Shown piece by piece: positions 42,918 to 62,088 of a stretch of DNA of 64,000 nucleotides. The stretch covers positions 6,294-70,293 of the forward strand of contig JAUSGI010000002.1 of NCBI GenBank assembly GCA_030649135.1, written 5' to 3'. How positions within the stretch are numbered: the stretch's first letter is position 1; each line of letters begins with the position of its first letter. Both the position numbers and the translations under genes were made by a program. Source of the DNA: a bacterium. Lineage in GTDB: Bacteria; Patescibacteriota; Minisyncoccia; Phycocordibacterales; Zambryskibacteraceae. Below the pieces are notes generated by a model, which searched no databases, was not told the origin of the DNA, and saw only the letters and a program-made list of their open reading frames with translations.

Positions 42918-42923
42918 GGTTTC

Positions 42924-44450: not shown

Positions 44451-44508
44451 GGTGTGTTCCCCCCTTGATTTTGGAACGTTTCTTGAAACAGATTAACAGA
44501 AATATCAA

Positions 44509-45684: not shown

Positions 45685-46430
45685 AGTCTTACATCTTTAC
45701 GCTTGACTTCTTCTTGATGATAAAGTGGAAGAAGAGCCTCGTAAGAACCGACTTCGGCCCCAATACTTTCAAAGTAACGCGGGAAATATTTCCCGCAATT
45801 TAACCGCAAGGTTTCGGAACTAAGTTTTATTTTGGATAGAAAGTTAAAAAGGTCAAATCCAGCGAGGGTAGAAACACCGGCATAATCGTAGTCGATAAGG
45901 TAAATATCTTTTTCCGAGACAAGGACATTATCCGGTGTCATGTCTCCATGTTGGGTAATCACGGGCAATCTAATATTATCGGGAAGTGTCTGAAATTCCT
46001 TGGTATTTTGTGCCAAATGAGACTGCCAAGCAATATAGTTTTCCATCACCAGCTCCACGTCTTGAGTTGAAGCCGAAAATCTCACCCCTGGGCAAACGGA
46101 TTCAATACAAAATACTATTTTCCCATCATCATAGAGATAAAGTGGAAGAGCAAAGAGGCTGGAATGAACACTTCCCTTCACCTCTTCTTGAAGCTTCTGA
46201 AGATTATGATGATTCTCCCTGATACTCTCTCCCGCCGCGTAAGTACGAGTAGTTTTAACACAAAGGGTTGGCCATTTTTCCTCTTCTTCAAAGACAAAGA
46301 TGAGAACCTTGCCTTGGTCGACTTTAGTCCCAGAAGCCGGAGTACTGGTCTTCATAAACGACAGTTTGCTCTCTCTGGCATGAAGCCATTCTGGATGCTC
46401 TTTTATAAGCTTGGTTAGAATAGCAATCAT
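45681..46430 (-). CDS. Protein-kinase-like-fold phosphotransferase (APH / choline kinase / LPS core kinase-like)
   Basis: Catalytic loop HGDMTPDNVLV and the metal-binding motif YLIDYDYAG. Confidence 0.55.
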   Translation of the reverse strand: MIAILTKLIKEHPEWLHARESKLSFMKTSTPASGTKVDQGKVLIFVFEEEEKWPTLCVKTTRTYAAGESIRENHHNLQKLQEEVKGSVHSSLFALPLYLYDDGKIVFCIESVCPGVRFSASTQDVELVMENYIAWQSHLAQNTKEFQTLPDNIRLPVITQHGDMTPDNVLVSEKDIYLIDYDYAGVSTLAGFDLFNFLSKIKLSSETLRLNCGKYFPRYFESIGAEVGSYEALLPLYHQEEVKRKDVRL

Positions 46431-47329
46431 TTCTGTACTACTATGCCAAAACTAAAGAAAAAATAGCGATAGAGCCACAACAAGATTGATGAGTGCACAA
46501 TGGAGTGCAGGGCATACGAGAGCGCATTTAGATTGTCATATGGAATCATCATTCGTGGCAAATTATATCCCGGGTATGTAAGGTAAAATTCTATATTATT
46601 GAAGCCGGCTTCGCGGAGAAGTTTCTCATAGCCACTTTTGGTATAAGTGTAGGTATCGTAACTTCTCCCTCTCCTCAACTTCATGTAGATATTAGCTACA
46701 AAACGTGGCATGTAGCTCGTAAAGTAAAGTCCGCTGTGGTCCCGGCCTCGTAGATAGGCCAAGGCGAAGCGATTCTCGATGCCAATATAGAGATGCCCGC
46801 CTTTTTTTAATAAATCTTTGGCGATTTTTAAACTGGCGATTTGCGCCTCTCGGGGGTCGTGAAAGCGCTCTGTAGCACCGACCCATTCCAGAAGTCCATT
46901 CATGACAATTAAGTCAAAGCTCTCTTTTCCAAAAGGTTTGTCCAAAATATCTCCCACATAGACCTCGATATTTTTGAGACCCTCTTTTTCGGCTCTTAAT
47001 TTCAGAAACTTCATCCGCAAATATGAACCATCAAGAGCCACAACACTTGACGCAACCCTGGCCAGCGGAATACTAATCCGCCCCATACCGGCCCCAACGT
47101 CCAAGACTCTAAAGTCCTCGGCCAGAGGAATAACGAAGCGCCAATCAGCCCTGTTTTCCTCAAAAGTTTGGTCAAATTTATTGCTGAAACGACTTCTAAA
47201 CTCATCCCATCCCTCCTTTTCTATCACTTCAACGGCTCTCTCCAGCTCTTCTTTGGGCGCTTTTCCCCAATAACGATCTTCGGAGAAAAAGGGTATGCCT
47301 TCAACTATTTTCTTATAATTTGCGTTCAT
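46427..47329 (-). CDS. Class I SAM-dependent methyltransferase
   Basis: VLDVGAGMGRISI and FDLIVMNGLLEWV. Confidence 0.75.
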   Translation of the reverse strand: MNANYKKIVEGIPFFSEDRYWGKAPKEELERAVEVIEKEGWDEFRSRFSNKFDQTFEENRADWRFVIPLAEDFRVLDVGAGMGRISIPLARVASSVVALDGSYLRMKFLKLRAEKEGLKNIEVYVGDILDKPFGKESFDLIVMNGLLEWVGATERFHDPREAQIASLKIAKDLLKKGGHLYIGIENRFALAYLRGRDHSGLYFTSYMPRFVANIYMKLRRGRSYDTYTYTKSGYEKLLREAGFNNIEFYLTYPGYNLPRMMIPYDNLNALSYALHSIVHSSILLWLYRYFFFSFGIVVQK

Positions 47330-47940
47330 TTTGTTACCTCTAAATTCAGAGAATTATCACGATTTGATTTGTCATGAAATTCATGATGTTCGGCACTTTC
47401 GACATCCCATGGTCTCAACTGACCGGAAAAACCCGCTTCTTTAAGAATCTTTTTTGCATAATTAAAATTCCAGATAGTGCAATGCCTATCAAAGTCCTGA
47501 TCTTGGCCAAGAAGCTGATTAATAATGCTATCCGTTTCTTTCCCGGACGCGTTATAAAAATCTATGAGCTTGTCGAAATCAGGAACTCCAAATCTTAGGA
47601 TACCTCCCGGCTTAAGTACTCGCCGCCATTCTGCCAAAGTCCCAAGGAGATTGCTTCTGGGAATATGCTCGAGAACGTGACTGGCGTACACCATGTCAAC
47701 CGACTCATTGGGAAAGACCGAAAGGTCTCGGATATCCAAAACCAAATGGGTCTTGCGAAACGGAAAAGCATCAATATTTATAAATTCCGATGAGGTATTT
47801 ACCCCGCTGCCCAAATTCAGATAAATCTTTCCATCTTTATTCTTTGGAATCCTCTCCCTAAAAATTAAAAACTTTATACGCCACAAGAGACGATAAAGCC
47901 ATAATCTCGATGGTAGAGTCCATGCTTTGAATTTATCCAT
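47326..47940 (-). CDS. Class I SAM-dependent methyltransferase
   Basis: LNLGSGVN, VDMVYASHVLEHI and LKPGGILRF. Confidence 0.75.
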   Translation of the reverse strand: MDKFKAWTLPSRLWLYRLLWRIKFLIFRERIPKNKDGKIYLNLGSGVNTSSEFINIDAFPFRKTHLVLDIRDLSVFPNESVDMVYASHVLEHIPRSNLLGTLAEWRRVLKPGGILRFGVPDFDKLIDFYNASGKETDSIINQLLGQDQDFDRHCTIWNFNYAKKILKEAGFSGQLRPWDVESAEHHEFHDKSNRDNSLNLEVTK

Positions 47941-48927: not shown

Positions 48928-49953
48928 CTACCTCGTTAAGAATTGAGGCGCAATTTCATTAATAACCTTGCGGGCTAAGATTTTAGGAGTAAATTCTTGC
49001 TGGTATAGCTGGTAAGCATGTTCCGCAACTTGTTCAAGTTCTTTCGGGTGACCCCTTAACTCAACAATCTTACGAGCCAACTCACGATAACCCCCCGGTG
49101 GCACGGTAAAGCAGGTTTGGTTATCGGCGAGAAACTCCATCACACCTTTATTTTCTCCAGTAAGATACGGGAGTTTCATCGCCATGCTTTCAAAAACTTT
49201 ATGTGGAATCGTGGTGTGAACCCGCGGATGATTAGCTAATTGTCCAAGCGACAGGTGACATTCCGTCATTTTTTGTCGCAATTCATCTATGGGAAGTCTC
49301 GTAGTAACAAGTTCGAGATTCTTGGGTTTAAGCTCATCTATCAATTTTTCAATTTCTTTTAACAGTAAACCACGACCAATAATTCGGATTTTAATATCTT
49401 CTTGCTCTAACTCTTTGGCCGCCCGAACGACAACTTCTGCCCCAGCTTCTGGCAGAAACATGCCACGGAAAACAACAGTAAATTGTTTTAATTTGGCAAT
49501 GGCGGGGTCAAAGTAAAATTGTTTATCGTCCGTCCCAACGAAGTGGACCGAGATTTTGTCCGGATTAATTCGGAAAATTTTGACCACTAAATCTTTTTGA
49601 GACTGACACTCAAGAAATACCTTATCGGCCAAACTGAAAGCCAGGAAATCTATTAGCCAATATCGCACCAGATTCGCGCCCCGGGATATCACCATGCTGT
49701 CATAAAAAGTGGCCAGAGCATTGTATATAATTCTTTTTCTGGTAAAAAATCTAAGAAAGATAATTAAGATACTTGAGGCGTAGCCTATCATTACTAAATC
49801 ACTCTCTGGTTCCAGATTACGAAAGTCTTTCAAAAGCTTGCAATATCCATTAAAGCCGAGCTCTTTGACTTCTACTCCATTTTCTTTTAAACCCATGACG
49901 GTAATCCGGTCTCGCGGATTATCGAGTTTGAAGCTCACGTAGCAGATTTTCAT
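48928..49953 (-). CDS. Glycosyltransferase family 4
   Basis: C-terminal Glycos_transf_1 region FRGMFLPEAGAEVV ... FESMAMKLPYL. Confidence 0.7.
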   Translation of the reverse strand: MKICYVSFKLDNPRDRITVMGLKENGVEVKELGFNGYCKLLKDFRNLEPESDLVMIGYASSILIIFLRFFTRKRIIYNALATFYDSMVISRGANLVRYWLIDFLAFSLADKVFLECQSQKDLVVKIFRINPDKISVHFVGTDDKQFYFDPAIAKLKQFTVVFRGMFLPEAGAEVVVRAAKELEQEDIKIRIIGRGLLLKEIEKLIDELKPKNLELVTTRLPIDELRQKMTECHLSLGQLANHPRVHTTIPHKVFESMAMKLPYLTGENKGVMEFLADNQTCFTVPPGGYRELARKIVELRGHPKELEQVAEHAYQLYQQEFTPKILARKVINEIAPQFLTR

Positions 49954-50891
49954 AATTCTCGCGCCAACTTATCCATGAGTAGATTAAGGCTGTGGTCTTC
50001 TACCTTGAAGTTTTTTAGGTCCGGGTTCCTAACTTCGAGCTTCATCCCGCAAGCGGCAGCTTCAATTATTGTTTTATCCATACTTCCGGCAGGAGTGAAG
50101 TTGGCGTAAGTTTCGTGTGTTTGGTAAAGCTTGAGAGCCTCGACTTGATTTACCGGTCCGATGAATTTGATTTTATCGTTAAGATTTTGCTTTACACGTT
50201 CTCCATATTCCTTATCATCCGGCAAAATAGGCCCGGCAATAGTTGCAGTATATTCGGTACCCCCGACCCAATCAATGAACTCTAAAACCTTCTTTACCGG
50301 AGAAATGCGGCCTAGGAAAAGAACGGAATTAGGTATTCTCTTTACACTTGGGTCAGGTTTGAAAAAATCAGTATCTATACCAGCGGGCATCAATTTAGTC
50401 TTTTTGAATCTGGCAGTATAAGAACTCGGCGAAGTGCAGAAAACTTTATCTGAAAGTAATACGGCCATACGAGTCCATAAATTCCCCTTCGCATGATTCC
50501 TCCACAAACATACTTTCTTGCCCATTAGCCACCACGATTTCCAACCGAGGATGACATACTCTTGATTCATGTGCACAAACACAGAATTATAATTTCTCCT
50601 CTCCCGCCAAATATATTCATAAAATCTGAAAATGTATTTGAATCTAGACCGACCACCCTCTTTGCCAAGAGATAGTACCTTAACATTTGCCGGTAAATGA
50701 TAGCTCCCCCGTGAAATAATTTTTCCTCCAGAAAAATTATCGCCTTGCGATATTTCACGGGGTGAACCCCTCTCAAGACAGATTACTGTCACAAACTCAA
50801 ATCGCTTAGCAAACTCCCGTACCCAGCGTACAAAGAAACCAAGCACAGGATTATTCTCGTCTAGTGATTGTGTAATTATTAGTAATTTCAT
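49950..50891 (-). CDS. Glycosyltransferase (GT-B, GT4-like)
   Basis: General GT4-like architecture with conserved C-terminal E residues. Translationally coupled to the upstream GT4. Confidence 0.55.
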   Translation of the reverse strand: MKLLIITQSLDENNPVLGFFVRWVREFAKRFEFVTVICLERGSPREISQGDNFSGGKIISRGSYHLPANVKVLSLGKEGGRSRFKYIFRFYEYIWRERRNYNSVFVHMNQEYVILGWKSWWLMGKKVCLWRNHAKGNLWTRMAVLLSDKVFCTSPSSYTARFKKTKLMPAGIDTDFFKPDPSVKRIPNSVLFLGRISPVKKVLEFIDWVGGTEYTATIAGPILPDDKEYGERVKQNLNDKIKFIGPVNQVEALKLYQTHETYANFTPAGSMDKTIIEAAACGMKLEVRNPDLKNFKVEDHSLNLLMDKLAREL

Positions 50892-51114
50892 GTGGAGGGC
50901 CTTGTGAAATACGATTTGAGCCTGTTTTTTGTCGATTCTACAGCCCCCTTCAAGTGTTGCTCAAATCGTAATTCAATATCATTAGTATACCCGACATAAA
51001 AATTTCCATCTTTTTGACTCTGTAGAACATAGACGTAGAATTTTTCATCAAATACAGACATGATATTGAATTATTTCACTGGGCAAGTCCAACGATGGAA
51101 AAAACCCAAAATAG

Positions 51115-51967
51115 GGTCACTTTTATCGACTTTCTGGGTGATCACCAGCAGTTTCATTGGATTTCCTCGCTCCTATTTTCTTATATGCGGAAGGTTAAAC
51201 CTTGCGTATTGGTCTTACTTCCATCATAATTCTAGTATGACACGCCCAATTATATTATCAATCGGAGAATTTTATCACATTTATAATCGTGGCACTGAAA
51301 AAAGAAAGATTTTTTTATCCAAACATGACTACGAACGTTTTATAGCTCTTCTCTATCTTTGTAACTCCACTATCTCCGTCCGTATAGACATGCGACGCAA
51401 ATCTTTAGATGAAACCCTCGATACTGACCGTGATAAGAATCTGGTAGATATTGGTAGCTACTGTTTAATGCCCAACCACTTTCATATTCTACTTAAAGAA
51501 AGAGTTGAAAATGGTATTAGCCTATTTATGCAAAAATTAACTACGGCTTATACTATGTATTTCAATAAAAAATACGAACGTAACGGATCTCTTTTCCAAG
51601 GAACTTTTAAGGCAGAGCATGCGGATAAAGACAGTTACTTGAAATATCTATTCGCATATATTCACTTAAATCCAGTCAAACTGATTGAACCCGAATGGAA
51701 GAAGGTGGGTATCAAAAACCGCACAAATGCTAAGCAGTTTCTGAGAAATTACCCTTATTCTAGTTATTTTGAATATACCGGAATCGACAGAAAATGGAAG
51801 ACTATTCTAACGCCTAAGGCGTTTCCAGACTATTTTGATACTACCGATGGCTTTCAGAAAATGATTGATTACTGGCTTGAGTTTAGTTCTGAACAATCCT
51901 AGTGTAGTGCGTAAGGTTTAACCTTGTTCAAAAAGGTCATTTTTATCGACTTTCTGGGTAACTACCA
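51115..51967 (+). mobile_element. IS200/IS605-like unit: Y1-transposase gene flanked by 33-bp direct repeats and subterminal palindromes
   Basis: GGTCACTTTTATCGACTTTCTGGGTGATCACCA at 51115-51147 matches GGTCATTTTTATCGACTTTCTGGGTAACTACCA at 51935-51967. The palindromes AAGGTTAAACCTT at 51191-51203 and AAGGTTTAACCTT at 51913-51925 are subterminal. Confidence 0.5.
51237..51902 (+). CDS. tnpA: IS200/IS605-family Y1 (HUH) transposase / RAYT-like
   Basis: YHIYNRGTEKRKIF, HUH motif LMPNHFHILL and the catalytic Tyr region GSLFQGTFKAEH..YLFAYIHLNP. Start reassigned to ATG 51237. Confidence 0.75.
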   Translation: MTRPIILSIGEFYHIYNRGTEKRKIFLSKHDYERFIALLYLCNSTISVRIDMRRKSLDETLDTDRDKNLVDIGSYCLMPNHFHILLKERVENGISLFMQKLTTAYTMYFNKKYERNGSLFQGTFKAEHADKDSYLKYLFAYIHLNPVKLIEPEWKKVGIKNRTNAKQFLRNYPYSSYFEYTGIDRKWKTILTPKAFPDYFDTTDGFQKMIDYWLEFSSEQS

Positions 51968-51973
51968 ATAATC

Positions 51974-53257
51974 TCATTGAGTTGGTGTGTCTGGGGTCTT
52001 TTCCGCATTTTCAGTTTGCTCTTCTTTTTTCATAAGTTCAAATGCTTGGCCGAGATATCTCAATACATGGTGCCCGACAAGATAATGGAATAGGAGGCCA
52101 ACCAGTCCGGCAAGAATGACGAGCAAGAGGAGATAAACGAGATTGTCTTTGATAAATTTGCTAATAAGCGATGACGACGAGACTGCCGCTGTGACATCTC
52201 TGATATTGCCGGCCTTATCGAAGACTCGCACCATAACGTTTAAGTCGCCGCGAGCGAGCGGTATCTGAAAAGGACTCTCCGTTTGGACAAAAACGGGGGA
52301 GACGGTAACTGGTTGGCTTTTATCAATTATTCCGACCTCATAATAATCCACTCCCGACAGATTATCCGTAGTAAAGAAAGAGATTATCGACCGTTCGACC
52401 AAATTCACCGCTGCCAACAAATAACTAACTTCCGGTTTGAAGTCTGCCGGCGGGACAGTGTCAATTCTTATCAGAAAATGCCCAGTCGTCCCCCAGACTC
52501 CATTTTTATTGGCTTTAATATGAAAATACCATAAGCCATCGGCCAAACTTTCAAACGCTTCTGAAGTCTCGTTGGCAGTAATGGAGTTCTCTGGGATTGT
52601 GGATGGTTTATCATCCAAAATATAACTAAATCCCGAAACGCCGGCATCCCGATCCCATGAGATTACCGGACTGTCATTGTTGTACCACTCACCCTGGAAC
52701 GGATGGGTCTCCGAGAAGACCTTCACCCCTTCCGGAGCCTTCGGCACAATCGCATATTCCGCCCTGCCCAACTCTACTTCGGCTTCCGTACCTTGGCCAT
52801 CATTCAAGAGTACTTTTGAATTAGCGCCAAAAGAGACCGTTGCCCAGCCAGTCCTCTTGGCTTTAAAAGTGATTGTCCCCACTAAACCGGAGTTCGTAGT
52901 AATACCGTCCGGTATGACACCGACATAACTGGCCGTACCGCGAGTGTTATCGTAACTTGGCGGTTCCACCCAGACACCGATAATAGAGAGGCCGCTCGAC
53001 GGTTTTATGATTTCCAGCTTATCTTTGTCGAAGTTAACCCTGATTTCAATACCATTGATTTCGGCGCCGTCTGTATCGACTAGAATCGGGATATTGAAGG
53101 TTGAGTTCTCGACAAAGCTGGCGGCACGGGGAGAGAATGAAAGTTCGATTTTCGGAATTAATTGCGAGACATCCAGAGAGACTGTCTCGGCGTATGTATG
53201 AGACCAGATGAGAGCCGTGAGAACAAACAGTAGAAGTATTCTTGAAATACGTGCCAT
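51974..53257 (-). CDS. Cohesin-domain surface protein with signal peptide and C-terminal TM anchor
   Basis: Signal peptide, then a cohesin-like beta-sandwich (INGIEIRVNFDKDKLEIIKP...GLVGTITFKAKRTGWATVSF), a second conserved domain (VMVRVFDKAGNIRD) and a C-terminal TM helix. Confidence 0.6.
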   Translation of the reverse strand: MARISRILLLFVLTALIWSHTYAETVSLDVSQLIPKIELSFSPRAASFVENSTFNIPILVDTDGAEINGIEIRVNFDKDKLEIIKPSSGLSIIGVWVEPPSYDNTRGTASYVGVIPDGITTNSGLVGTITFKAKRTGWATVSFGANSKVLLNDGQGTEAEVELGRAEYAIVPKAPEGVKVFSETHPFQGEWYNNDSPVISWDRDAGVSGFSYILDDKPSTIPENSITANETSEAFESLADGLWYFHIKANKNGVWGTTGHFLIRIDTVPPADFKPEVSYLLAAVNLVERSIISFFTTDNLSGVDYYEVGIIDKSQPVTVSPVFVQTESPFQIPLARGDLNVMVRVFDKAGNIRDVTAAVSSSSLISKFIKDNLVYLLLLVILAGLVGLLFHYLVGHHVLRYLGQAFELMKKEEQTENAEKTPDTPTQ

Positions 53258-53266
53258 TATTATTAT

Positions 53267-54244
53267 CTAATCCCCGAGATCCTTCTCAGCGTGGACAACT
53301 TCCTGATGGATGATTTTTTCAGCATCTGCCAAGTTCTGCTTTAGGCGATGCGTGATTGTCTCTTCTTCCGCGGTTAGCTTCCGTTTATCGCGGGTCCGCT
53401 CCAAAATATGGAGGCTATCACCGACATCCTCTTTCAGAAGTTCAAAAGATTTTCCCGTCAATCGGTCTATATTATGCAGGTCTTTCCTCATATCCTTCCG
53501 CAATCTCGATACATTGCCCGCCCCCTTCGCGGCAGTATGAGTGAGAAGGAATATAAGCGCGACAATGAGAGCGAGCAGGAAGAATAACGCCAGAAGCCAG
53601 CTTATGGCAGTTTTAAGCGACGGGGTGCCAAATGGAAGAGTGTCCGCTTCTTCCTCCTTATCAAGCGTTCCAAGATCAATGGCGGGTGCTAAATTGTCTT
53701 CTCCATCTGTACCATTAGTCTCGAGCACTGCTGGCGGAGTGACGGGAAGTTGCTGCTTTTGCTCCAGCGCAAACGAGGCAGTGCCGAGGGTCTTAAGAAT
53801 ATTGGTGCCATAGCCATCGTTGGCAAGAAGTGAACCCGATGTCAAGCGAATGAGGGCGTTACCCGTACCGACTACCTTAAAATTGACACCCAAAACCCTG
53901 CCGTTAGATTCGCTAAAGCCGGGGTTAGGCACCACGCCCTCGAAAGTCACCGTGCCGCGAGAGTTGGAAAATGACGGTTCCTGGATCCAGAGCGATAGCA
54001 CCGACCCAATCTTCGATATGGAAGTCACCTGCAGACTGTCCGCCGGGAATGACAGCACGCCGGAAACGGCATTGATGGACTGCTGGGGACTTGAGACCAT
54101 GATGCGCACCGAGAACGTATCCCCGACGGAGTACGTCCCAGTTAAGGGAGAGAGAAAAATAGTATCGGCAAAAACGCTCTTCGGTGATACGAGGACTAAA
54201 AGAATCGTGAGCGTAAAGAGCGCCTTAAGAGTAAAAGAACGCAT
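53267..54244 (-). CDS. Cohesin-domain membrane protein with cytoplasmic coiled-coil tail
   Basis: Signal peptide, a cohesin-like domain (INAVSGVLSFPADSLQVTSI...GRVLGVNFKVVGTGNALIRL), a TM helix and a charged helical C-terminus. Confidence 0.55.
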   Translation of the reverse strand: MRSFTLKALFTLTILLVLVSPKSVFADTIFLSPLTGTYSVGDTFSVRIMVSSPQQSINAVSGVLSFPADSLQVTSISKIGSVLSLWIQEPSFSNSRGTVTFEGVVPNPGFSESNGRVLGVNFKVVGTGNALIRLTSGSLLANDGYGTNILKTLGTASFALEQKQQLPVTPPAVLETNGTDGEDNLAPAIDLGTLDKEEEADTLPFGTPSLKTAISWLLALFFLLALIVALIFLLTHTAAKGAGNVSRLRKDMRKDLHNIDRLTGKSFELLKEDVGDSLHILERTRDKRKLTAEEETITHRLKQNLADAEKIIHQEVVHAEKDLGD

Positions 54245-54945
54245 AACAATATTATAATACTAATCAAAACACTTGCATAATGGTATGGACCAGCTGTGGA
54301 TGCATCTCTATGATTACCTGCCTTATCCACCGCGCGAATGTGTATCTTCTGGAAAGTCTCTAGGTGCGATAAAACTAAGGGTGATTCTGTTTCTATCCAA
54401 TTTTCATCTCTAGGACTAAGAAACCAAGTGGAAGCCGCCTCGTAGCGCTCGACGCCCGTGCCCTTGTCTTGAGCGGTAAACGAAATGAAATGTCTGCCGC
54501 CAAAAATATCCGGCGATGTTGATATTATAGGCTCAAAAGGTTCCGGTGGTACCGTATCTTCGGCTATTTCCGTTTGTCGTAAAGAGAGCCTGACCGAAAC
54601 GCTTTCTCCGGAACCGTCATTTTTATATGCTTTTATGTTGTTGAAAGAGAAGCCGGCAATATTTGAAGCGTCAAAAGCAAAAAGCCGATATTTCCCCCTA
54701 AATCCGCCCGGTGTTATACCGGCAAACGGGATGGTATTTCCAAGCAGCTCCGGCGAGGTAACCCAGATAAGAACGGCTGAATTGCCGGTATAGATATTTT
54801 CCACGCTTACATTTGTTGGCAAAACTAAAGTTCCCTCAATGGCATTGATTGTTTCTGTACCCGTATCAACTTCAATCACGGCAGTAACTGCTCCAGCAAA
54901 GAGTGGTAGAGAAAAGAGAATGATTATGATAAGAATTTTTCTCAT
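54196..54945 (-). CDS. Cohesin-like surface protein with C-terminal TM anchor
   Basis: Signal peptide, a cohesin-like domain, the conserved block HIRAVDKAGNHRD shared with the 51974 protein, and a C-terminal TM helix. Confidence 0.5.
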   Translation of the reverse strand: MRKILIIIILFSLPLFAGAVTAVIEVDTGTETINAIEGTLVLPTNVSVENIYTGNSAVLIWVTSPELLGNTIPFAGITPGGFRGKYRLFAFDASNIAGFSFNNIKAYKNDGSGESVSVRLSLRQTEIAEDTVPPEPFEPIISTSPDIFGGRHFISFTAQDKGTGVERYEAASTWFLSPRDENWIETESPLVLSHLETFQKIHIRAVDKAGNHRDASTAGPYHYASVLISIIILLCVLLLLRRSLRSRFF

Positions 54946-54946
54946 A

Positions 54947-56287
54947 CTAGCCAGTCCAATTAAACGCCATTATAGAGAAGTCTACGAGATTGACCTTGCC
55001 ATCGCCATTGATATCAGCACTCTTGGGCGGAGCTGGCCTATTATACCAATAGGCAACAATGGAAAAGTCCACGAGGTTGACACGGCAATCGGCGTTCGCA
55101 TCTCCTCGTTTATCGCACTTTTGGGGAGTTTTGGCAAAAAGAATACTGATGTTGCCGACAACGAAAGGCACTGCCAGGCTGTACGGGCTTATCTCATTTG
55201 CTTTAGCAGCTTTCGACTTGGTGCTATGGTCGCCATACTCGAGTGGTGTAGTATCAAAGTTGTAGAGATATATCCCGTTCACATCTGCCGGAGTTTTGGC
55301 GAAGAACTGCTGGTCGGAATTTATTTGTATTGTTACTTCGCTTTGGTGAGCTACCTGACCGAATATGGTAATGTCATCCCCTTTTCTCACTTGCGATTTA
55401 TCCACAGCCACAGTCGGCGCTATGAATATGCCGGTAATATCGGTGGTCACTCCTGCGGTTACGCTCACCGGGAATGTCAATAAAGATGACCTATTACCTT
55501 GATTGTCCTCGCTATATATGGAAAAGAAATAATTGCCGGCAGTCAGATTGGTAAGTGATGCCTGGAAATTGGACGTGGCGTCAGCAATTGTTGTGGCAGA
55601 CACTTGGGCATCTTTAAGGATAGTGATGGGTCTTCTCGGATATGCTCGGCCGGAGAAATTGACCCCGCCTGTAGCATAGGTCGTCACGCCTCCTCCACCA
55701 CCACCACCACCCCCACCACCTCCGCCTCCTCCGCCATCATCATCGTCGTCAACCGGTGCGGTGGGGGTAGCGGAAACCTCGGTAGAAGTGGCAATGGTAT
55801 TATCCAGAGCATCCAAAACCCTGACAACGAAGTAATATGTGGTGCCGGCAGTAAGCCCCGTGCGCGTGGAAGCAAGTACGTCACCAACATCTGTATAAGT
55901 ATATGCACCGCCGGCAGTAGTGGACTGACCCACCGAATATCCTCCTACCGCCCAGCCAGTCGAGGCATCCGCGGTCGTCCAAGTGAGTGACACTTGCTCG
56001 GCACCGGCGGTGGCCGTCACGGCAGGAGTGGAAACAAACGGAAAATAAAGAAAGCCACCAAAAAGTTGATAGAGACTGTTGGTGGTTGAAGTGCCAATCG
56101 CCATTTGGGAAATGACTGCGTTTAGTCTGAAACTAGTGGAAGTAGAGTATCCGCCGGAAAATAACACGGGGTTAGAGACCGTATAAGTATCGGAAGAAAA
56201 ATCCTGCGCATAGGCGGCGTTGACGGTGAGAAAAAATAGAAAACATAAACTTAGAAGCGTTAGAAATCGTACTTGTGGAAAAAACAT
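54947..56287 (-). CDS. Secreted FN3 / Ig-like protein with C-terminal type-I dockerin
   Basis: Signal peptide, a fibronectin-III-like domain (LTWTTADASTGWAVGGYSV...TYYFVVRVLD), a D5-G17 linker and two dockerin Ca-binding repeats (DANADCRVNLVDFSIVAYW and DINGDGKVNLVDFSIMAFNW). Confidence 0.7.
   Translation of the reverse strand: MFFPQVRFLTLLSLCFLFFLTVNAAYAQDFSSDTYTVSNPVLFSGGYSTSTSFRLNAVISQMAIGTSTTNSLYQLFGGFLYFPFVSTPAVTATAGAEQVSLTWTTADASTGWAVGGYSVGQSTTAGGAYTYTDVGDVLASTRTGLTAGTTYYFVVRVLDALDNTIATSTEVSATPTAPVDDDDDGGGGGGGGGGGGGGGGVTTYATGGVNFSGRAYPRRPITILKDAQVSATTIADATSNFQASLTNLTAGNYFFSIYSEDNQGNRSSLLTFPVSVTAGVTTDITGIFIAPTVAVDKSQVRKGDDITIFGQVAHQSEVTIQINSDQQFFAKTPADVNGIYLYNFDTTPLEYGDHSTKSKAAKANEISPYSLAVPFVVGNISILFAKTPQKCDKRGDANADCRVNLVDFSIVAYWYNRPAPPKSADINGDGKVNLVDFSIMAFNWTG
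55689..55746 (-). repeat. Low-complexity tract encoding DDDDD-GGGGGGGGGGGGGGGGG
   Basis: CCTCCACCACCACCACCCCCACCACCTCCGCCTCCTCCGCC...ATCATCATCGTCGTC on the plus strand. Confidence 0.8.
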
Positions 56288-56347
56288 ACTAAGTAATTAT
56301 ACAACATAGTAACTGTGCAGAATATATAGTACCGAGTACTGAAAGCC

Positions 56348-57089
56348 GAGAGCTTTAGACTCTCACTAATACTGTATACTTATAGATATCTCCCAAACAT
56401 GAGAAAGGAACCTATCATAACAAACCATTATTATCACATTTATAATCGAGGAGTGGATAAGCGTGACATATTTAGCGATATAAAAGACCTTAAACGTTTT
56501 AAAGAAAGTGTAAAACAGTTCAATCAAGTCGATGGCATAGGTAGCCTGGAACTATATCGCAAATCCGTGAGAGCTTTAGGCTCTCACTTTGAATTGAAAT
56601 CGAAACCGATTGTGGATATTGTCGCCTTCTGCATAAATCCTAATCATTTTCATTTTATCTTAAAACAACTGGAGGACGGCGGAATAGCAAAATTCATGCA
56701 GAAATTACTCGGTGGATACACATATTACTTTAATCAGAGACATGCACGTTCTGGTTCATTATTTCAAGGAACATTCAAGTCTAAACTAATCAACCACGAT
56801 GACTATTTTAGAAAAATATTTGCGTATGTAAACCAAAATTATTCTGTTCATAACATACCAAAAAATAAATCAATTTTTATTTTTGCAAGCAATACAGAAT
56901 ACGAGAGTGGGCATTTTGATTTTGTTTCTAAAATCGAAGGACAGGAAATGTTAAAAATTTTTGGTGGAAAAAATAATCTTAAAAAACACTGCGAAGAAAT
57001 TATATCTATTATTCGAAAAGAACGTGGCAAAACTTCTCTAGAAGAACCAGACGAACTGCCTATGTGAGTGAGAGCCTAAAGCTCTCACT
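56348..57089 (+). mobile_element. Second IS200/IS605-like unit: Y1-transposase gene flanked by about 20-bp terminal inverted palindromic repeats
   Basis: GAGAGCTTTAGACTCTCAC at 56348-56366 and its reverse complement GTGAGAGCCTAAAGCTCTCAC at 57069-57089 match at 19 of 20 positions. Each forms a hairpin. Confidence 0.5.
56399..57067 (+). CDS. tnpA: IS200/IS605-family Y1 (HUH) transposase / RAYT-like, diverged paralog of 51237..51902
   Basis: YHIYNRGVDKRDIF, INPNHFHFIL and GSLFQGTFKSKL..IFAYVNQN. Confidence 0.75.
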   Translation: MRKEPIITNHYYHIYNRGVDKRDIFSDIKDLKRFKESVKQFNQVDGIGSLELYRKSVRALGSHFELKSKPIVDIVAFCINPNHFHFILKQLEDGGIAKFMQKLLGGYTYYFNQRHARSGSLFQGTFKSKLINHDDYFRKIFAYVNQNYSVHNIPKNKSIFIFASNTEYESGHFDFVSKIEGQEMLKIFGGKNNLKKHCEEIISIIRKERGKTSLEEPDELPM

Positions 57090-57101: not shown

Positions 57102-57632
57102 TTATAGGAAGAGCCAGGTTTTTATTATAGGAGAAAGCCAGGATTCTTGCTCACGAAGAGCGGTCACTTCATAGAGAAATCCCTTATGGACAAACCAGAC
57201 TTCCCAAGTCTCACCGAGCTTAACACTCTTGCTATAGAAAGACGTGGCGAGCACGCCATCAAGATAAAAAGTGGAGGGATTCTGTTTGATGCCGGACGGC
57301 ACGTCCAGCAAGAAACGCTTATCACTTATCTTTTCCTCGCCATAGGGAACCACAAAAATCTGGAAACCCATTTTTTCGTCTTTATTTTCAAAAATAAAAG
57401 TCTTTGCCCCATCACCCTCATCGAACTCTCTTGCAATTGTGCCTGCCGGATAGAGCAGGGAGAAAATGTATCGTTCGCTTCGATATTCGTGCCACCCATC
57501 GGGCACGTCTCGCACGGCACCCGCTGTCCTGTTCTCGTCGTCTCCACCACGCTTTTCCGGTAAATAAAAAAATGCTCCGACAATAAGCCCGAGGGTTATA
57601 ACAATACCGACCACAATGCTTGTGTATTTCAT
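57102..57632 (-). CDS. Hypothetical N-terminally membrane-anchored protein
   Basis: Start at ATG 57632 (MKYTSIVVGIVITLGLIVGAFFY), followed by a single TM helix and a soluble domain. Confidence 0.4.
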   Translation of the reverse strand: MKYTSIVVGIVITLGLIVGAFFYLPEKRGGDDENRTAGAVRDVPDGWHEYRSERYIFSLLYPAGTIAREFDEGDGAKTFIFENKDEKMGFQIFVVPYGEEKISDKRFLLDVPSGIKQNPSTFYLDGVLATSFYSKSVKLGETWEVWFVHKGFLYEVTALREQESWLSPIIKTWLFL

Positions 57633-57748
57633 ACTTTTACACATATAATTATATCACCGCACACCTTGGCACGAAACGGTGATATACTTTAAGAGAGTGG
57701 GTGGGTGGTCGACCCCACAAGAAAAGATTACGAGTAATGAATTAAAAA

Positions 57749-57928
57749 ATGAAAAAACTTTTGCCTATGGGCCTAATCGTAGTGGGGTTAATCGTGGTGG
57801 CATTCTTAGTCGCAGGGACAAATCAAACTTTTGCAAAAAAACCGACACCGCCACCGGATACCTCAACGACAACACCGCCGACTACCTCAACGACCACGAA
57901 ACCAGCGGTGTCTCCAATGGACCCATAA
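57749..57928 (+). CDS. Candidate small secreted/membrane Pro-Thr-rich peptide (59 aa)
   Basis: MKKLLPMGLIVVGLIVVAFLVAGTNQTFAKKPTPPPDTSTTTPPTTSTTTKPAVSPMDP. It is followed by a perfect palindromic terminator. Below the ORF-track size cut-off. Confidence 0.35.
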   Translation: MKKLLPMGLIVVGLIVVAFLVAGTNQTFAKKPTPPPDTSTTTPPTTSTTTKPAVSPMDP

Positions 57929-57953
57929 ATTCCACGCTATTGAATCTCCAAAC

Positions 57954-57989
57954 CAAAATACCACGTTTAAACGTGGTATTTTGGTTTTT
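57954..57989. terminator. Perfect 28-nt palindrome AAAATACCACGTTTAAACGTGGTATTTT plus T-run (bidirectional)
   Basis: Lies between the small plus-strand ORF and the stop of the convergent 1025-aa gene. Confidence 0.7.
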
Positions 57990-58010
57990 TAAAATTACAC
58001 AGATGCCAAC

Positions 58011-61000
58011 TTATTGCGTGTAATAGACCTTCGCCTGAATATGGTCCAAGTTTATTGCAGGAAACTCTCCACCACCTAGAGAGTCAGCGTTAATTCTCAA
58101 TCTAAAATTGGCATCGGAAAATTCCGTATCCGCCCAGATTCTGCCCCACTTGTCAGTGGCGCCTCCTAAGGTATAAATAACGTCTTCTGAAGTAGTTAAC
58201 TCCCCCGTATCATAACCGGATGTTGTATAAGTTGGTCCCCCATCCCACGAAAGTTCCACACCTATGATACAAGAGGTGCAATCCACGTCTTTAACCTCGG
58301 CCTTTACCTCTATGCCGTCTATCGTCGCCCCAGCCGGAATACTAAAAGAAAAATTATAATAATCCTGTTCCTGGTTTAACGTAATTTCTACCGCATAATC
58401 ATTATTTGAAGAAAAGGCGCTGGAACCGCTTCCCCACTGATTATGGTCCTCCCCAGTAGCTGTAGGTGATTTAAGCCCAGTATCACCCGGGCCGCCACCG
58501 CCACTACTACCACTGCCATATAAAACCACCTTCCCATTTAGAAATTTAATAGTAGAACCTTCAAAGAGACGCAGGGTGCGCGCCGCGGTGCTGTTGCCAG
58601 TCACAAATTGCTTGATAGCTCCATAACCCTCCAATGCTCCGGCGAAGGCATAGGCACGGAAGAAGTAGGTAGTATCGGCAGCAAGCGAAGCGATGCCGCT
58701 ACTGAAAGAGCTATTGCTTGCAAGCGCGCCGAGTGTGGTAGTCGCCGCAACCGCAAGCGTCGAATCAGTACCGTAGGCAAAACCATGCTCTGTAGCATTA
58801 TCTCCTCCCGTTTTGGTGCCGTTAAGATTGGCAGAGTTAAAGCCCGGGGTGGCAAAATTGGTGGTGACGGTGGGAGTAATAATATTCTCTTCCTCGGCAC
58901 TTATGGTATAAAAAGTGGAAGTGGCATTTTGGTTATTATATTCTGTCTGAATCCAGTCATACGAACGAGCGGTACTTGAGATTCGAACTTCGTCTATAAC
59001 ACCACCGAAGAAAATATTGGTGCCAAAAGCATTAGACCCTTGGCCCAAAAGAAGGTTGTTCGTGTTGACTTCAAAATCAGTGCTAACGGTAGAACTAGCA
59101 ACCCGCACGCCGTCCACATAATAATTCATAATTGAGCCAGTATGCGTCACAGCCACATGCTTGAAGACGTCCGGCGCCGTCGAAGTGGCAAAAGTGGTCG
59201 GTTTCCCTGCCCAGTCAAAGACGTACCCACTCCCCGTCTGAATCATTTCATAGGCGGCGAGCTTGGAAACAAATGGATGCGCCGGAAGTGTGGAAGAGGC
59301 GGTAGTCCATACGGGAGTCGTACCGTCATGCCCAAAAGCGCTGTAAAAAAGACTTTTGCCGTCACTTTCAAGAGCCGCGTCAGCGGACTGAGCAGCTGCG
59401 GTAGCATTCGGCTGACCGGTGCCAAGGTTAATCCACGACAGCGCGGGAGTTGTACCGTCGAGGGTTGAGGAGGCGTAAGAGTAGCTTTCCGTAGCACCAC
59501 TGAACATAAACGCCGCGTGGTACATATAGTCTCCAACGATTGTAGAGTCATTAAAAGAATGATCCGTGGAGCCGGTGGCTTGGGGGTCAGCATCATTAGT
59601 AAATGCATCGGTGGAAGAAAGATCAAGAGGCATATCCACGCGGGCGTAGTTGGATAAAGAGTTGGTCCCCAAACCACACATACCTGCTATATAAAGTCGG
59701 TCACCGTTCGTATTAAGACCAGCCCCACATCCTTCCGAAGCGGTTCCCGCAGGAGGAGTGTTATTGGGGTCTATCCAGCCAGTCCAGTCACTGCCGTCGA
59801 TATTAATAGAGGCCACCATATCATTCTCGGTACCACCGGTGAGCATCAGAGCATAGAAATATGCTCTCTTGCCTGTAACCACGACATCAATACTCGAGGA
59901 TTCCGCGGCACCTATACCAGTCGGGTTTGCGGGATTTTTCCAAGTAGATATGGCGCCACCGAGAGTTGATGTGGCATAGCTGAAAGTGGCTGTCGTACTG
60001 TCGTTGTTTAAAACTGCGTACCAGATGTACTGCCCATCGGAGTCTACGCCGATAGAGCTTCCGTCGGTCGAGGCACAGGCACCAGTCGGTGAGGTACCAA
60101 CAGCCCAAGCGGTAACAGAAGAACCACTAAGAGTCGAGGAAGCGGTCTTAAAGGCATCTGTCGCTGTCGTACAATTGATATTTCCATAGTAGATACGCTC
60201 ACCGACGACAACTGAATCCAATTGACTGTATTCGTCACCCCCAACTCCCGCTGGCGCGGTGCGAGTCACCCATGGTGACATGTTGGTTGTCGGCTTGCTT
60301 GAAGTACTGGTGGTTTGCACCCACGCTTCTATGGTACCGGTGTTTAGAATGTCGAGGTCAGCGTGGTCTGTTACGGTAGAGACGTCATTAACACCGTCGA
60401 AGGTATAGGCAGGACCAAATTTCCCTACATTAGCGCCAGCTGTGGCACCGGAGACCGAACCATTTTGTGCCGTGCCGGCAGAATCGCTATTGGAAGAACC
60501 TGTATCGTCCATGTGCCAGACACCGACGAATGTCCCTTCCGTTGTGGCATCCCATGTGCCGGAAACATCTTCGGTCGGCGTAGTCACACCTGAATTACCG
60601 TAAAACATATAGATAGTCGTGTCGTTATCGAAATCCAGAGTCGGAACTTCCACCCACATGATTACCTCTCCCGTGGTAGGAGTATAGCGTTCCACTTCGT
60701 GTTTAAGTTGAGACGACCCCTGAGTGTCCGTTGCAAATACAATATCGTCTCCCCCGAGGTCGGTCACATGACCACCACTACCATCATCCTCCTTAAACTC
60801 TGCCTCGGTAAACGACATCAGAACCGGAAAGCCGGTGAAGTTGGCTGTCCCGATAACCTGCGCGTTTTGGATAGTAATAGTACGGCGGTAGGTATAACCA
60901 TTGTCGAACGAGGCCTCCGCCCTTTTCACCTCAAAGCCGAGTTCTATTTTCTTATCGGAAAAAGGCAGTTTAATCGTTAGCAGCACGGGAGAGAATACCC

Positions 61001-61088
61001 ACACAAAAATGAAAAGAAAGACAAAGGCACTGCGTATGAGTCTCTGCGATAGCCGGTTCGAGCGCAATGTTTGATGTAAAAAATTCAT
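58011..61088 (-). CDS. Giant (1025 aa) extracellular DUF2341 / LamG-like (concanavalin-A-like lectin) domain protein
   Basis: N-terminal TM/signal; YTYRRTITIQNAQV...FPVL, typical of DUF2341; the LamG hallmark FFGGVIDEVRISSTARSYDWI; FN3-like and Ser/Thr/Gly-rich regions. Confidence 0.6.
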   Translation of the reverse strand: MNFLHQTLRSNRLSQRLIRSAFVFLFIFVWVFSPVLLTIKLPFSDKKIELGFEVKRAEASFDNGYTYRRTITIQNAQVIGTANFTGFPVLMSFTEAEFKEDDGSGGHVTDLGGDDIVFATDTQGSSQLKHEVERYTPTTGEVIMWVEVPTLDFDNDTTIYMFYGNSGVTTPTEDVSGTWDATTEGTFVGVWHMDDTGSSNSDSAGTAQNGSVSGATAGANVGKFGPAYTFDGVNDVSTVTDHADLDILNTGTIEAWVQTTSTSSKPTTNMSPWVTRTAPAGVGGDEYSQLDSVVVGERIYYGNINCTTATDAFKTASSTLSGSSVTAWAVGTSPTGACASTDGSSIGVDSDGQYIWYAVLNNDSTTATFSYATSTLGGAISTWKNPANPTGIGAAESSSIDVVVTGKRAYFYALMLTGGTENDMVASINIDGSDWTGWIDPNNTPPAGTASEGCGAGLNTNGDRLYIAGMCGLGTNSLSNYARVDMPLDLSSTDAFTNDADPQATGSTDHSFNDSTIVGDYMYHAAFMFSGATESYSYASSTLDGTTPALSWINLGTGQPNATAAAQSADAALESDGKSLFYSAFGHDGTTPVWTTASSTLPAHPFVSKLAAYEMIQTGSGYVFDWAGKPTTFATSTAPDVFKHVAVTHTGSIMNYYVDGVRVASSTVSTDFEVNTNNLLLGQGSNAFGTNIFFGGVIDEVRISSTARSYDWIQTEYNNQNATSTFYTISAEEENIITPTVTTNFATPGFNSANLNGTKTGGDNATEHGFAYGTDSTLAVAATTTLGALASNSSFSSGIASLAADTTYFFRAYAFAGALEGYGAIKQFVTGNSTAARTLRLFEGSTIKFLNGKVVLYGSGSSGGGGPGDTGLKSPTATGEDHNQWGSGSSAFSSNNDYAVEITLNQEQDYYNFSFSIPAGATIDGIEVKAEVKDVDCTSCIIGVELSWDGGPTYTTSGYDTGELTTSEDVIYTLGGATDKWGRIWADTEFSDANFRLRINADSLGGGEFPAINLDHIQAKVYYTQ

Positions 61089-61101: not shown

Positions 61102-62088
61102 TCATTGGCTGGCGTGCGAAAAAAATTCAAGCGCTATGTTCGATACTGCATGCATCATACGCGCCGCCTGTTCCCGTTCGACAATGTCGTCATTTATCCC
61201 TCTCACCTCAACCATGACGGTTATAAGATATGGCCGGTTCGGGAGATAAACGATACCGGAATCGCTATATGAGTTAGTACTGGGACCCATGCCGTATTTA
61301 TGGGGGAAAGGAATCGTTTCTGGAACCGGCTGTCGCAAAAAATCTTTAAACTCTGCGTGGTTTAATAATTCAAGGATAAGTTCCGAGTTTTCCCTATTAA
61401 GATAACTGGCGGTGTAAAGCGCTCGTATTGTCCGGGAAAACTCTTTCGAGGTTACCTCCCCTTTTTCATTAAACAAATCATCAAGACCGAGTGCTTCCTG
61501 TAGGGCGCCTAATTTTGATTGAGGAATATTTCTCGCCAGGATGTTATAGGCAGTGTTATCGGAACGAATTAGAAGCTCTTCTAAAAGTTTCTCTACCGTA
61601 AACTTGGTACCAACCGGTTGCGTATGGATATTGGATGATGCACTCGTACGATCCCCTTCTTCAAGTGCTAAAGTCTGCCCGCGTGTCCAAGTTCCAGCTT
61701 CAATCATTCCCATCACGGCAAACGCCATGGGGATTTTGGCTAAACTCTTGGGCACGAAGCGATTCTCCGGATTGATATTAATATTGGCGCCAGTGTTTAG
61801 AAATTCGATGTATATCGAAATTCTCATATCTTTCTCAGATGCGACAAAATCGCGTAACCGTTCGCGCAGTGGCTGTAAGGTAGAGAGAAAATGTTCCTGC
61901 GGGACAAGATGCCGCGCCACATCAATGAGTGGATATTTTTGCTGTAATTTTTCTATGTTTTCACTCCCCTGACCACCATTGAATACATAAGTGCGGAACA
62001 CAATAAGGACAAGCGCTAGTAAGAGAATGGAGCTTGCTATCCGCCACTGTTTGAGTGCTGTCTGTAATTTATCTTTATCCTTCATCAT
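61102..62088 (-). CDS. Class A beta-lactamase-like serine hydrolase (membrane-anchored)
   Basis: SxxK (KSLAK), SDN loop (IRSDNTAYNIL) and a KTG-like KYGMG motif, with an N-terminal TM helix. Confidence 0.6.
   Translation of the reverse strand: MMKDKDKLQTALKQWRIASSILLLALVLIVFRTYVFNGGQGSENIEKLQQKYPLIDVARHLVPQEHFLSTLQPLRERLRDFVASEKDMRISIYIEFLNTGANININPENRFVPKSLAKIPMAFAVMGMIEAGTWTRGQTLALEEGDRTSASSNIHTQPVGTKFTVEKLLEELLIRSDNTAYNILARNIPQSKLGALQEALGLDDLFNEKGEVTSKEFSRTIRALYTASYLNRENSELILELLNHAEFKDFLRQPVPETIPFPHKYGMGPSTNSYSDSGIVYLPNRPYLITVMVEVRGINDDIVEREQAARMMHAVSNIALEFFSHASQ

Follow-up and report, generated by a model that had tools for sequence, protein, structure and literature searches.

A conserved cohesin-dockerin operon and two separate RAYT-like Y1 units in a Zambryskibacteraceae locus

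A stretch of 64,000 nucleotides from a member of the Zambryskibacteraceae (Patescibacteriota; GenBank assembly GCA_030649135.1, contig JAUSGI010000002.1, positions 6,294 to 70,293, hereafter the window) carries four minus-strand genes, three for cohesin-like membrane proteins and one for a secreted dockerin protein, that lie between two plus-strand genes, tnpA1 and tnpA2, for Y1 HUH proteins. The original prediction described the four genes as an island that the two flanking units, in the manner of a composite transposon, could mobilise as an adhesion module. Gene order and sequence comparison among relatives indicate instead that the four genes are a vertically inherited chromosomal cohesin-dockerin operon of Paceibacterota that is not mobile as a block, and that the two Y1 units are separate hairpin-framed insertions, with no evidence linking them. 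The locus as a whole is very likely a vertically inherited envelope operon of Paceibacterota together with small selfish genes picked up at gene junctions. The picture that remains is one of an uncharacterised conserved non-cellulosomal operon, two ordinary RAYT-like units and a decayed GIY-YIG gene.

Gene order and inheritance of the four-gene block

Relatives of the operon were gathered in a metagenome scan that gave 80 further loci, and 83 loci were mapped in total. Gene order was counted in the 36 of these that had at least 4.6 kb of upstream sequence. The order dockerin-249-325-427, in which the numbers are the protein lengths in amino acids, was kept in 23 of the 36 loci, frequently beside the glycosyltransferase and DUF2341 neighbours known from the window, and the rest mostly held the same genes rearranged or only distant matches. 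In most relatives, rearranged loci included, the dockerin gene lay together with the genes for the three cohesin-like proteins. The 427-aa protein was the most conserved member of the cluster with 423 homologs, of which the best 120 were 57–74% identical to it; those of the 120 with a named source came from Zambryskibacteria, Wolfebacteria, Paceibacterota and Parcubacteria. This level of identity looks high for a surface protein.

The comparison of related genomes between the glycosyltransferase (GT) and DUF2341 neighbours, proposed with the original prediction as a check, went against a mobile island, as the block was present and syntenic in relatives that have no Y1 genes. In L005, the closest relative, the order ran DUF2341, p180-like gene, Y1 gene on the opposite strand, dockerin gene, genes for about 260, about 280 and 437 aa, the GT gene and then the same series of GT, epimerase and methyltransferase genes as in the window. 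The 437-aa product is the ortholog of the 427-aa protein (74% identical) and its gene overlaps the GT gene at the position that tnpA1 occupies in the window. Gene order in L003 and L004, both Zambryskibacteria, was as in L005 with no Y1 gene, and L007 held the four genes with no Y1 gene and different downstream neighbours. The GT gene (49950..50891, minus strand), whose start overlaps the end of the 427-aa gene in relatives, and the DUF2341 gene were common to the window, L003 and L005. On the upstream side, a 180-aa protein and, by Pfam, a 1025-aa DUF2341/LamG protein (57102..61088, minus strand) are conserved neighbours that were also found in L005, L003 and L097. A Y1 gene lay within 8 kb of the operon in only 2 of the 83 relatives.

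These results bear directly on the composite transposon, in which both Y1 genes would jointly excise and move the 4.3-kb cohesin-dockerin block. What speaks for it is the arrangement itself: the block lies between two Y1 HUH genes of the same strand, both of them with palindromes. However, the order of the block and its neighbours were the same in relatives without one or both Y1 genes, and the GC content of the operon (0.48) fits that of the flanks (0.43–0.49), whereas the Y1 units are AT-rich outliers (0.34–0.36). No transposon ends are shared, because the Y1 proteins are 42% identical and their hairpins are unrelated; the "direct repeats" at tnpA1 are duplicated starts of the GT gene; and composite transposons are not known for class 2 Y1 proteins (PMC6006769, PMC5581495). 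Synteny, Y1 divergence, unrelated hairpins and GC content together refute the idea that a composite transposon mobilises an adhesion module, and we regard such a transposon as exceedingly improbable. Since the block is not mobile cargo, it is read here as part of the biology of the lineage and not as a horizontally spreading adhesion module.

Cohesin-like proteins and the dockerin protein

A check of the window placed every listed open reading frame (ORF) at its coordinates, in agreement with the ORF positions of the original prediction. Window ORFs were scored by Pfam with curated cut-offs (Cohesin, 24.1 bits; Dockerin_1, 22.9; Y1_Tnp, 23; GIY-YIG, 22.6). The profile searches that had been proposed gave matches above cut-off for Cohesin in the 427-aa protein only, for Dockerin_1 in the 446-aa protein and for Y1_Tnp in both flanking ORFs.

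The 427-aa type I membrane protein (51974..53257, minus strand) consists of a cohesin module, encoded at about nt 52745–53152, an FN3-like middle domain, an Ig-like domain and a transmembrane helix. It scored 27.3 bits against Cohesin (PF00963) and was the sole window protein with a direct match. The 325-aa type I membrane protein (53267..54244, minus strand) has a cohesin-like N-domain, a linker, a transmembrane helix read from its sequence and a charged cytoplasmic tail of about 90 aa. The 249-aa type I membrane protein (54196..54945, minus strand) has a short cohesin-like N-domain, an Ig-like domain and a C-terminal transmembrane helix. By inspection, all three begin with a signal peptide and have a hydrophobic helix close to the C-terminus, and the C-terminal helices of the 427-aa and 249-aa proteins were visible in their AlphaFold2 models. 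Two or three tandem paralogs of the 427-aa protein were seen in L092, L098, L108, L114, L116, L124, L130, L134, L144, L145 and L155.

The 325-aa protein was 32% identical to the 427-aa protein over the N-domain (BLASTP, E 2e-19). The 249-aa protein matched the 427-aa protein in the C-terminal Ig-like domain (E 2e-9) and weakly in the N-domain (E 0.007). A profile of the 249-aa family built from 40 homologs aligned with the 427-aa family profile at 99.9% probability (hhalign, E 2.8e-36) across both domains, and 8 of the 40 homologs matched Pfam Cohesin themselves.

Fold comparison was needed because the sequence-only search of the Protein Data Bank (PDB) with the 427-aa family profile gave a marginal cohesin match (E 0.09). 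The AlphaFold2 model of the 427-aa protein (predicted local distance difference test score, pLDDT, 81) had its best PDB match in 2w1n, a cohesin-FN3 double module of C. perfringens (Foldseek, E 1e-11). It superimposed on solved cohesins with template modelling (TM) scores of 0.70–0.78 and a root-mean-square deviation of 2.5–3 Å over about 150 columns, in keeping with the nine-stranded beta-sandwich of the cohesin fold. The top Foldseek matches of the 249-aa model (pLDDT 93.7) were the cohesins 2w1n and 2xdh, the latter from Archaeoglobus. The proposed structure prediction of the cohesin candidates thus returned solved cohesins as top matches for both models. Paralogy, profile comparison and predicted folds place the 325-aa and 249-aa proteins in the cohesin family, so that two of the three cohesin calls are indirect. 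The description of three paralogous membrane-anchored cohesin-like proteins was therefore essentially right, one by a direct Pfam match and two by BLASTP, hhalign, family members and fold.

The secreted 446-aa protein (54947..56287, minus strand) has a signal peptide only (MFFPQVRFLTLLSLCFLFFLTVNAAYA, read from the sequence), unlike the three cohesin-like proteins with their C-terminal membrane helix as judged by inspection. From N- to C-terminus its layout is signal peptide, beta-rich region, FN3-like domain, Asp/Gly linker, Ig-like domains and dockerin, although its matches to fn3 (18.6) and Big_6 (23.7) were under the Pfam cut-offs. Dockerin_1 (PF00404) was matched at 32.0 bits over residues 395–440. 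The dockerin module (residues ~395–446; 54950..55105, minus strand) comprises two duplicated F-hand calcium-loop segments, DANADCRVNLVDF and DINGDGKVNLVDF, and the calcium-ligand pattern D1, N3, D5, N9, D12 was present in the translation of both (DANADCRVNLVD and DINGDGKVNLVD). Dockerin_1 was also matched by the L003 and L005 orthologs. The predicted dockerin duplication at the C-terminus of a secreted FN3 protein is accordingly borne out with both calcium loops intact; its type I label goes further than the match, as the Pfam name Dockerin_1 spans all dockerin types and type I status is not derivable from sequence here. The Asp5-Gly16 linker of the protein corresponds to a GC-rich triplet-like repeat at window 55684–55745 (CCACCACC...) that was detected as direct-repeat family D1.

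The gene set differs from a cellulosome in that each cohesin-like protein has one module, the dockerin protein has only FN3/Ig-like domains, and no glycoside hydrolase or carbohydrate-binding module was found. In the scanned window ORFs there was no real member of either group, the sole glycoside hydrolase signal being a secondary GH57 match on a CE4 deacetylase; the scan left out the ORFs at 39968–40933 and 40958–41734 and covered those from 41703 to 47940 only through a precomputed Pfam list. For the ORFs scanned, the statement that no glycoside hydrolase is encoded holds, and a cohesin/dockerin gene set without cellulosomal enzymes is supported.

The nearest known systems are non-cellulosomal pairs, represented by the cohesin-FN3 of C. 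perfringens GH84C (2w1n) and the cohesin of Archaeoglobus fulgidus (2xdh), which likewise use single modules without a cellulosome. Both the 427-aa and the 249-aa model have their best structural match in this group (2w1n), and the window dockerin likewise has two intact calcium-loop repeats. The window set differs in that the dockerin belongs to a protein without an enzyme domain, the cohesins are carried by three small proteins anchored in the membrane, and the whole is a conserved Paceibacterota operon beside a glycan-synthesis locus. The resemblance to anchoring scaffoldins (OlpA, 3ul4; ScaE, 2zf9; TM about 0.56–0.71) lies in a cell-surface cohesin able to capture a secreted dockerin protein. 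In the window, however, the anchor is a C-terminal transmembrane helix in place of SLH domains or sortase attachment, and a multi-cohesin scaffoldin, a carbohydrate-binding module and a dockerin-bearing glycoside hydrolase were all absent from the scanned ORFs.

It is possible, though we favour the opposite, that the cohesin-like modules do not bind the dockerin of the operon and serve some other envelope structure, or that the dockerin has its partner elsewhere or binds a glycan. Single cohesin and dockerin modules occur in many non-cellulosomal proteins, according to Peer et al. (2009) as cited in PMC6487960, and the weak sequence match to cellulosomal cohesins in the PDB profile search points the same way, as does the presence of three different cohesin-like proteins per one dockerin, which exceeds the need of simple tethering. 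On the other hand, the dockerin gene stays beside the three cohesin-like genes in most relatives, even in rearranged loci, both dockerin calcium loops are intact and the cohesin fold is well predicted.

A literature search returned nothing specific on Parcubacteria with regard to cohesin or dockerin, nor on Patescibacteria with regard to Y1/IS200 genes. For a cultivated Saccharibacterium, a transposon-sequencing study counts one dockerin-domain envelope protein among the essential ones (PMC10633639). Orthology with this Saccharibacteria protein, SEML1_0315, was considered and is unsupported, as it is encoded by a stand-alone gene of 927 aa in a different context.

The two Y1 units and the scar at the glycosyltransferase gene

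The gene tnpA1 (51237..51902, plus strand) encodes a 221-aa class 2 Y1 HUH protein with the motifs PNHFH, FQG, YIHLNP and SS; its true start is 51237, as compared with 51060 in the ORF list. The gene tnpA2 (56399..57067, plus strand) encodes a 222-aa class 2 Y1 HUH protein with PNHFH, FQG and YVNQNY. Both belong to the Y1 HUH superfamily (PF01797), with Y1_Tnp scores of 41 and 35.3 bits, respectively, the HUH motif and the catalytic Tyr. The two proteins were 42% identical over 146 aa, lower than the roughly 50% given in the original prediction, and their C-terminal thirds could not be aligned. Both His of PNHFH and Y141 were invariant across the Y1 alignment, which had invariant residues in PNHFH (HUH), FQG and Y..Y[IV]HLNP and also an SS tail motif.

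The motif Y---NP, the mark of class 2, RAYT-like TnpA-Y1 proteins (Quentin et al. 2018, PMC6006769), is present in tnpA1 and appears as the variant Y---NY in tnpA2. Subclass 2.1 of the same scheme is described by NH[YF]H / FQ / Y[IV]HLNP / SS and a length near 238 aa (PMC6006769), and by motifs the window proteins match class 2, subclass 2.1. The scores against the NCBIfam model NF047646 (REP_Tyr_transpos) were 41.7 and 31 bits, below its equivalog cut-off of 80, and in a PDB profile search the matches with ISDra2 TnpA and with E. coli TnpA-REP were weak (E about 0.2). A phage origin was not supported, as a PHROG search with the Y1 genes gave no matches.

The original label of IS200/IS605-type units stood in part. 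The genes are Y1 HUH genes with Y1_Tnp scores above cut-off, and the Y1 HUH core and subterminal hairpins are shared with IS200/IS605. The IS200/IS605 name is nevertheless too specific because of the class 2 (RAYT-like) motif and a length of about 221 aa. TnpA of IS200 (subclass 1.1) is about 150 aa long, carries Y---Q, occurs in near-identical multiple copies and is often accompanied by tnpB (PMC6006769), and identity with this subclass was ruled out by lengths of 221–222 aa, the motifs YIHLNP and YVNQNY (Y---N(P)), 42% identity between the copies and the lack of an adjacent tnpB-like ORF.

A scan of GTDB species genomes gave at least 581 relatives of the Y1 proteins. The best 80 were examined and nearly all came from Patescibacteria or unclassified metagenome-assembled genomes, two being labelled Omnitrophota and Gastranaerophilales. 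The layout of hairpins was counted in 73 loci with full flanks, and window repeats were judged against 100 shuffles. All of the window repeats were above chance, and 0 of the 100 shuffles matched the observed counts for the direct repeat at the tnpA1 site and for the tnpA2 hairpin.

Each window gene is framed by palindromes of its own. At tnpA1, the 14-mer AAGGTTTAAACCTT given previously was not present; the palindromes are the 13-mers AAGGTTAAACCTT upstream (51191..51203) and its reverse complement AAGGTTTAACCTT downstream (51913..51925). The upstream copy fits the family theme (C)AAGG-loop-CCTT(G), and its extended stem folds with a free energy of -6.4 kcal/mol (z -4.35); the downstream copy folds weakly alone (-2.6 kcal/mol). 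The 20-bp inverted palindromes reported at tnpA2 proved to be a real repeat, with three copies rather than two. The upstream copy (56346..56367) is degenerate and folds no better than shuffles (z -1.15). An intragenic copy (56567..56588; -9.5 kcal/mol, z -3.9) lies 170 nt into the coding sequence, encodes VRALGSH in frame and is a perfect 22-nt complement of the downstream copy, which overlaps the stop codon (57067..57089; -10.6 kcal/mol, z -6.4). The two window hairpins are unrelated, namely AAGGTTWAACCTT at tnpA1 and GTGAGAGC-TTTAG-GCTCTCAC at tnpA2.

The same layout was widespread in the family. A cognate, locus-specific palindrome was present on both sides of the gene in 53 of the 73 patescibacterial Y1 loci, about 35–50 nt before the start and 0–20 nt past the stop, and the median best flank match was 16–17 compared with 8–9 in displaced controls. 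The REP/RAYT-like framing by own palindromes that had been proposed for the window was therefore seen both there and across the family, and Y---NP occurs together with flanking cognate palindromes as in RAYTs and REPtrons (REP, repetitive extragenic palindromic). In 13 of the 53 hairpin-bearing loci (the window, L012, L014, L015, L024, L064, L065, L067, L072, L076, L077, L080 and L083) a cognate hairpin also lay in the gene, 154–232 nt from its start or in one case at +486, within the variable linker that precedes the HUH motif; an in-gene match was found for 14 of 2754 non-cognate hairpin-gene pairings (0.5%). The in-gene hairpin is encoded as LQG[RS]TLEE in many family members. In-frame REP insertions are described in tnpA-REP genes of subclass 2.4, between the HUH and Tyr motifs (PMC6006769), and the in-frame hairpin is a variant of this known oddity and no new phenomenon.

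A plain terminator role of the hairpins is disfavoured because copies recur upstream of, inside and downstream of the gene, and a T-rich tail follows only the intragenic copy. A consistent orientation, whether direct as in IS200 or inverted as in REPINs, was likewise rejected, as 16 pairs were direct and 15 inverted. An extra cognate copy lay 550–720 nt from the Y1 gene in seven family loci. In L005 a third copy of the local hairpin (CTAGGACATCGGATGTCCTAG, 5476–5496) stands just 5' of the p180-like gene, and hairpins thus also bracket that gene. In L008 and L059 an identical promoter-like -10 box (TGGTATAAT with context) is found just 5' of the Y1 start and just 3' of the Y1 stop.

No dispersed copies of the window hairpins were found elsewhere in the 64-kb window. 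Among the family loci, no cognate copies were present in the 318 kb lying more than 800 nt from the 53 genes, and 8 copies lay at 200–800 nt. A GT[AG]G foot was not conserved in 32 aligned hairpin pairs, the only shared theme being an apical AGG/CCT. Because the units have framing palindromes and no dispersed copies were found, they appear by analogy to resemble REPtrons and TIRtrons in species without a REP population (PMC3733652). With such class 2 units (PMC6006769; Di Nocera et al. 2013, PMC3733652; Bertels et al. 2017, PMC5581495) the window units share HUH plus Y---NP, several low-identity copies per genome each with its own flanking palindrome, an in-frame palindrome inside the gene as in subclass 2.4, and the protein motifs of subclass 2.1. 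They differ in having no GT[AG]G foot and no REP population detected in the DNA searched. In addition, subclass 2.1 is described as without REP-like flanks whereas the patescibacterial units have them, the in-gene copy is N-terminal to the HUH motif and not between HUH and Tyr as in subclass 2.4, and occupancy differs between close relatives.

These comparisons also bear on the possibility that the Y1 genes are domesticated, vertically inherited RAYTs that serve a genome-wide REP/REPIN population and are not mobile, their position by the operon being incidental. Such a role would agree with Y---NP and flanking cognate palindromes, the weak REP_Tyr_transpos matches, genomes with several diverged copies that each have a palindrome of their own, as known for RAYTs (PMC6006769), and the in-frame intragenic palindrome as in subclass 2.4. 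We nevertheless consider it unlikely in view of the missing foot, the lack of further hairpin copies in the window and in the 318 kb more than 800 nt away from the family genes, NCBIfam scores far under the cut-off, and the fact that occupancy differs among close relatives, the same site being found with non-orthologous Y1 genes.

Occupancy at the operon illustrates the last point. The tnpA1 junction had no insert in L005, L003 and L089. At the tnpA2 junction L005 carried a Y1 gene whose identity was only 35% with tnpA2 and 43% with tnpA1, between flanking proteins that were 64–77% identical to those of the window, and its hairpin is a different one (TTAGGACAT-CCG-ATGTCCTAA). Just 5' of the dockerin gene, the window (56292–56310, minus strand) and L005 (6795–6815) have a 22/23-nt promoter-like box, TTACTATGYTGTATAATTA, that is extended -10-like. 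In L003 the dockerin intergenic gap is 14 nt and the box is absent; both box-bearing loci have a Y1 unit at that site.

At the other end of the operon, the 33-bp direct repeat that had been described as framing tnpA1 is 50 nt long with 80% identity between the copies, has a 25-nt core that agrees in 24 of 25 positions, and is the duplicated 5' end of the GT gene. Both copies encode a GT start on the minus strand (MKLLVITQKVDK...), and the GT start is thus present three times within window 50888–51977. Relic copy A (51933..51977, minus strand), identified by alignment to the GT starts of L005 and L003, borders directly on the 427-aa gene, at whose stop there is an ATGA overlap. Relic copy B (51085..51157, minus strand; MKLLVITQKVDKSDPILGFFHRW, then a stop) is identical to the L005 GT start in 66 of 73 nt (90%) before it breaks off. 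At the functional start (50891), which continues as the real gene, 46 of 73 nt (63%) agree with L005. The tnpA1 unit sits between relics A and B, and a truncated GIY-YIG ORF of 57 aa (50888..51061, minus strand) sits between relic B and the functional GT start, whose start codon is overlapped by the stop of the ORF.

The repeat was rejected as a transposon end or target-site duplication of the family, as with hairpins masked it was the single top outlier of 73 loci; under this masking the median of the Y1 family equalled that of the control (9.5 compared with 9). Because no comparable repeat was present at the other Y1 loci after masking, the sequence comparison suggests that the GT-start duplication is a scar confined to this site, from two insertions at the beginning of the GT gene, and no family signature.

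The GIY-YIG ORF (PF01541, 39.7 bits) covers profile positions 1–41 of 78, is 57 aa long compared with 87 aa in L003, and matched a PHROG homing endonuclease with GIY-YIG motif (E 8e-6). It is similar to free-standing GIY-YIG homing endonuclease genes in being small, wedged at a junction and in translational overlap with the next gene, and differs in that the window copy is truncated. Small GIY-YIG ORFs were seen at various junctions of the operon in relatives (L003 4875–5138, L088, L105, L115, L125). The one in L003 separates the dockerin gene from the gene that follows and is accompanied by an 11–12-nt duplication of the dockerin gene end (TGGACAGGGTA).

A proposed surface complex and its setting

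Based on protein domains and predicted folds, the four genes most likely serve to build a cell-surface complex in which a stalk would be tethered via its dockerin to membrane cohesins. The operon would make a Sec-secreted FN3/Ig-like protein ending in a dockerin and three type I membrane proteins, each of which, with the topology suggested by signal peptide and helix, would display a cohesin-like module at its outward-facing N-terminus. By docking in a calcium-dependent manner onto at least one of these modules, the dockerin may then tether the Ig/FN3 stalk to the cell surface beside a large surface-glycan biosynthesis locus. At the ends of the operon, two antisense units of 0.75–0.8 kb, each a class 2 Y1 HUH gene with its own palindromes, would have been acquired or turned over separately, and the Y1 enzymes presumably act on their own hairpins.

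Several observations weigh against the reading of a vertically inherited cohesin-dockerin operon with separately acquired Y1 units. There was no direct Pfam Cohesin match for the 325-aa and 249-aa proteins, and the fit of the 249-aa model to cohesins was modest (TM 0.5–0.58). The pairing of cohesin and dockerin inside the operon is one that we infer from the co-location of the genes in most relatives. The source genome was searched for Y1 units and hairpins over 64 kb, and copies elsewhere in the genome are possible. Finally, since the TTACTATGYTGTATAATTA box is common to the window and L005 and absent in L003, an old shared insertion with cassette turnover may be as plausible at the tnpA2 site as two independent insertions.

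The first 50,000 nt of the window (1–50000) are mostly one surface-glycan biosynthesis locus, with SecA, Wzy_C (polymerase or ligase), a Polysacc_synt flippase and many glycosyltransferases of GT1, GT2, GT4 and GT9. It also includes sugar-nucleotide enzymes, DegT aminotransferases, epimerases, methyltransferases, a B12-binding radical SAM protein and an LPG_synthase_TM-methyltransferase fusion. Upstream of the DUF2341 protein are a 328-aa Beta-lactamase2-family protein (window 61102–62088) and a 477-aa protein with Peptidase_S74 (endosialidase chaperone) and an acidic repeat region (window 62092–63525). Known RNA families and tRNA genes were considered as integration targets and none were found in the window.

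The Y1 units carry the catalogue of RAYT-like genes into Patescibacteria, in a compact layout with private palindromes and sometimes an in-gene copy, and with no dispersed population seen. Only tentatively do we suggest that the operon is a lineage-wide minimal cohesin-dockerin complex, core to the envelope or host attachment of Paceibacterota, and, separately, that the Y1 units of Patescibacteria may form a distinct, self-contained RAYT variant, characterised by two or three private palindromes that co-vary and by an absence of dispersed repeats. Little is known of envelope construction and host attachment in bacteria of the Candidate Phyla Radiation, and Paceibacterota are almost without cultured members. 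One dockerin and three membrane-anchored cohesin-like modules would provide a concrete and testable surface interaction for this group.

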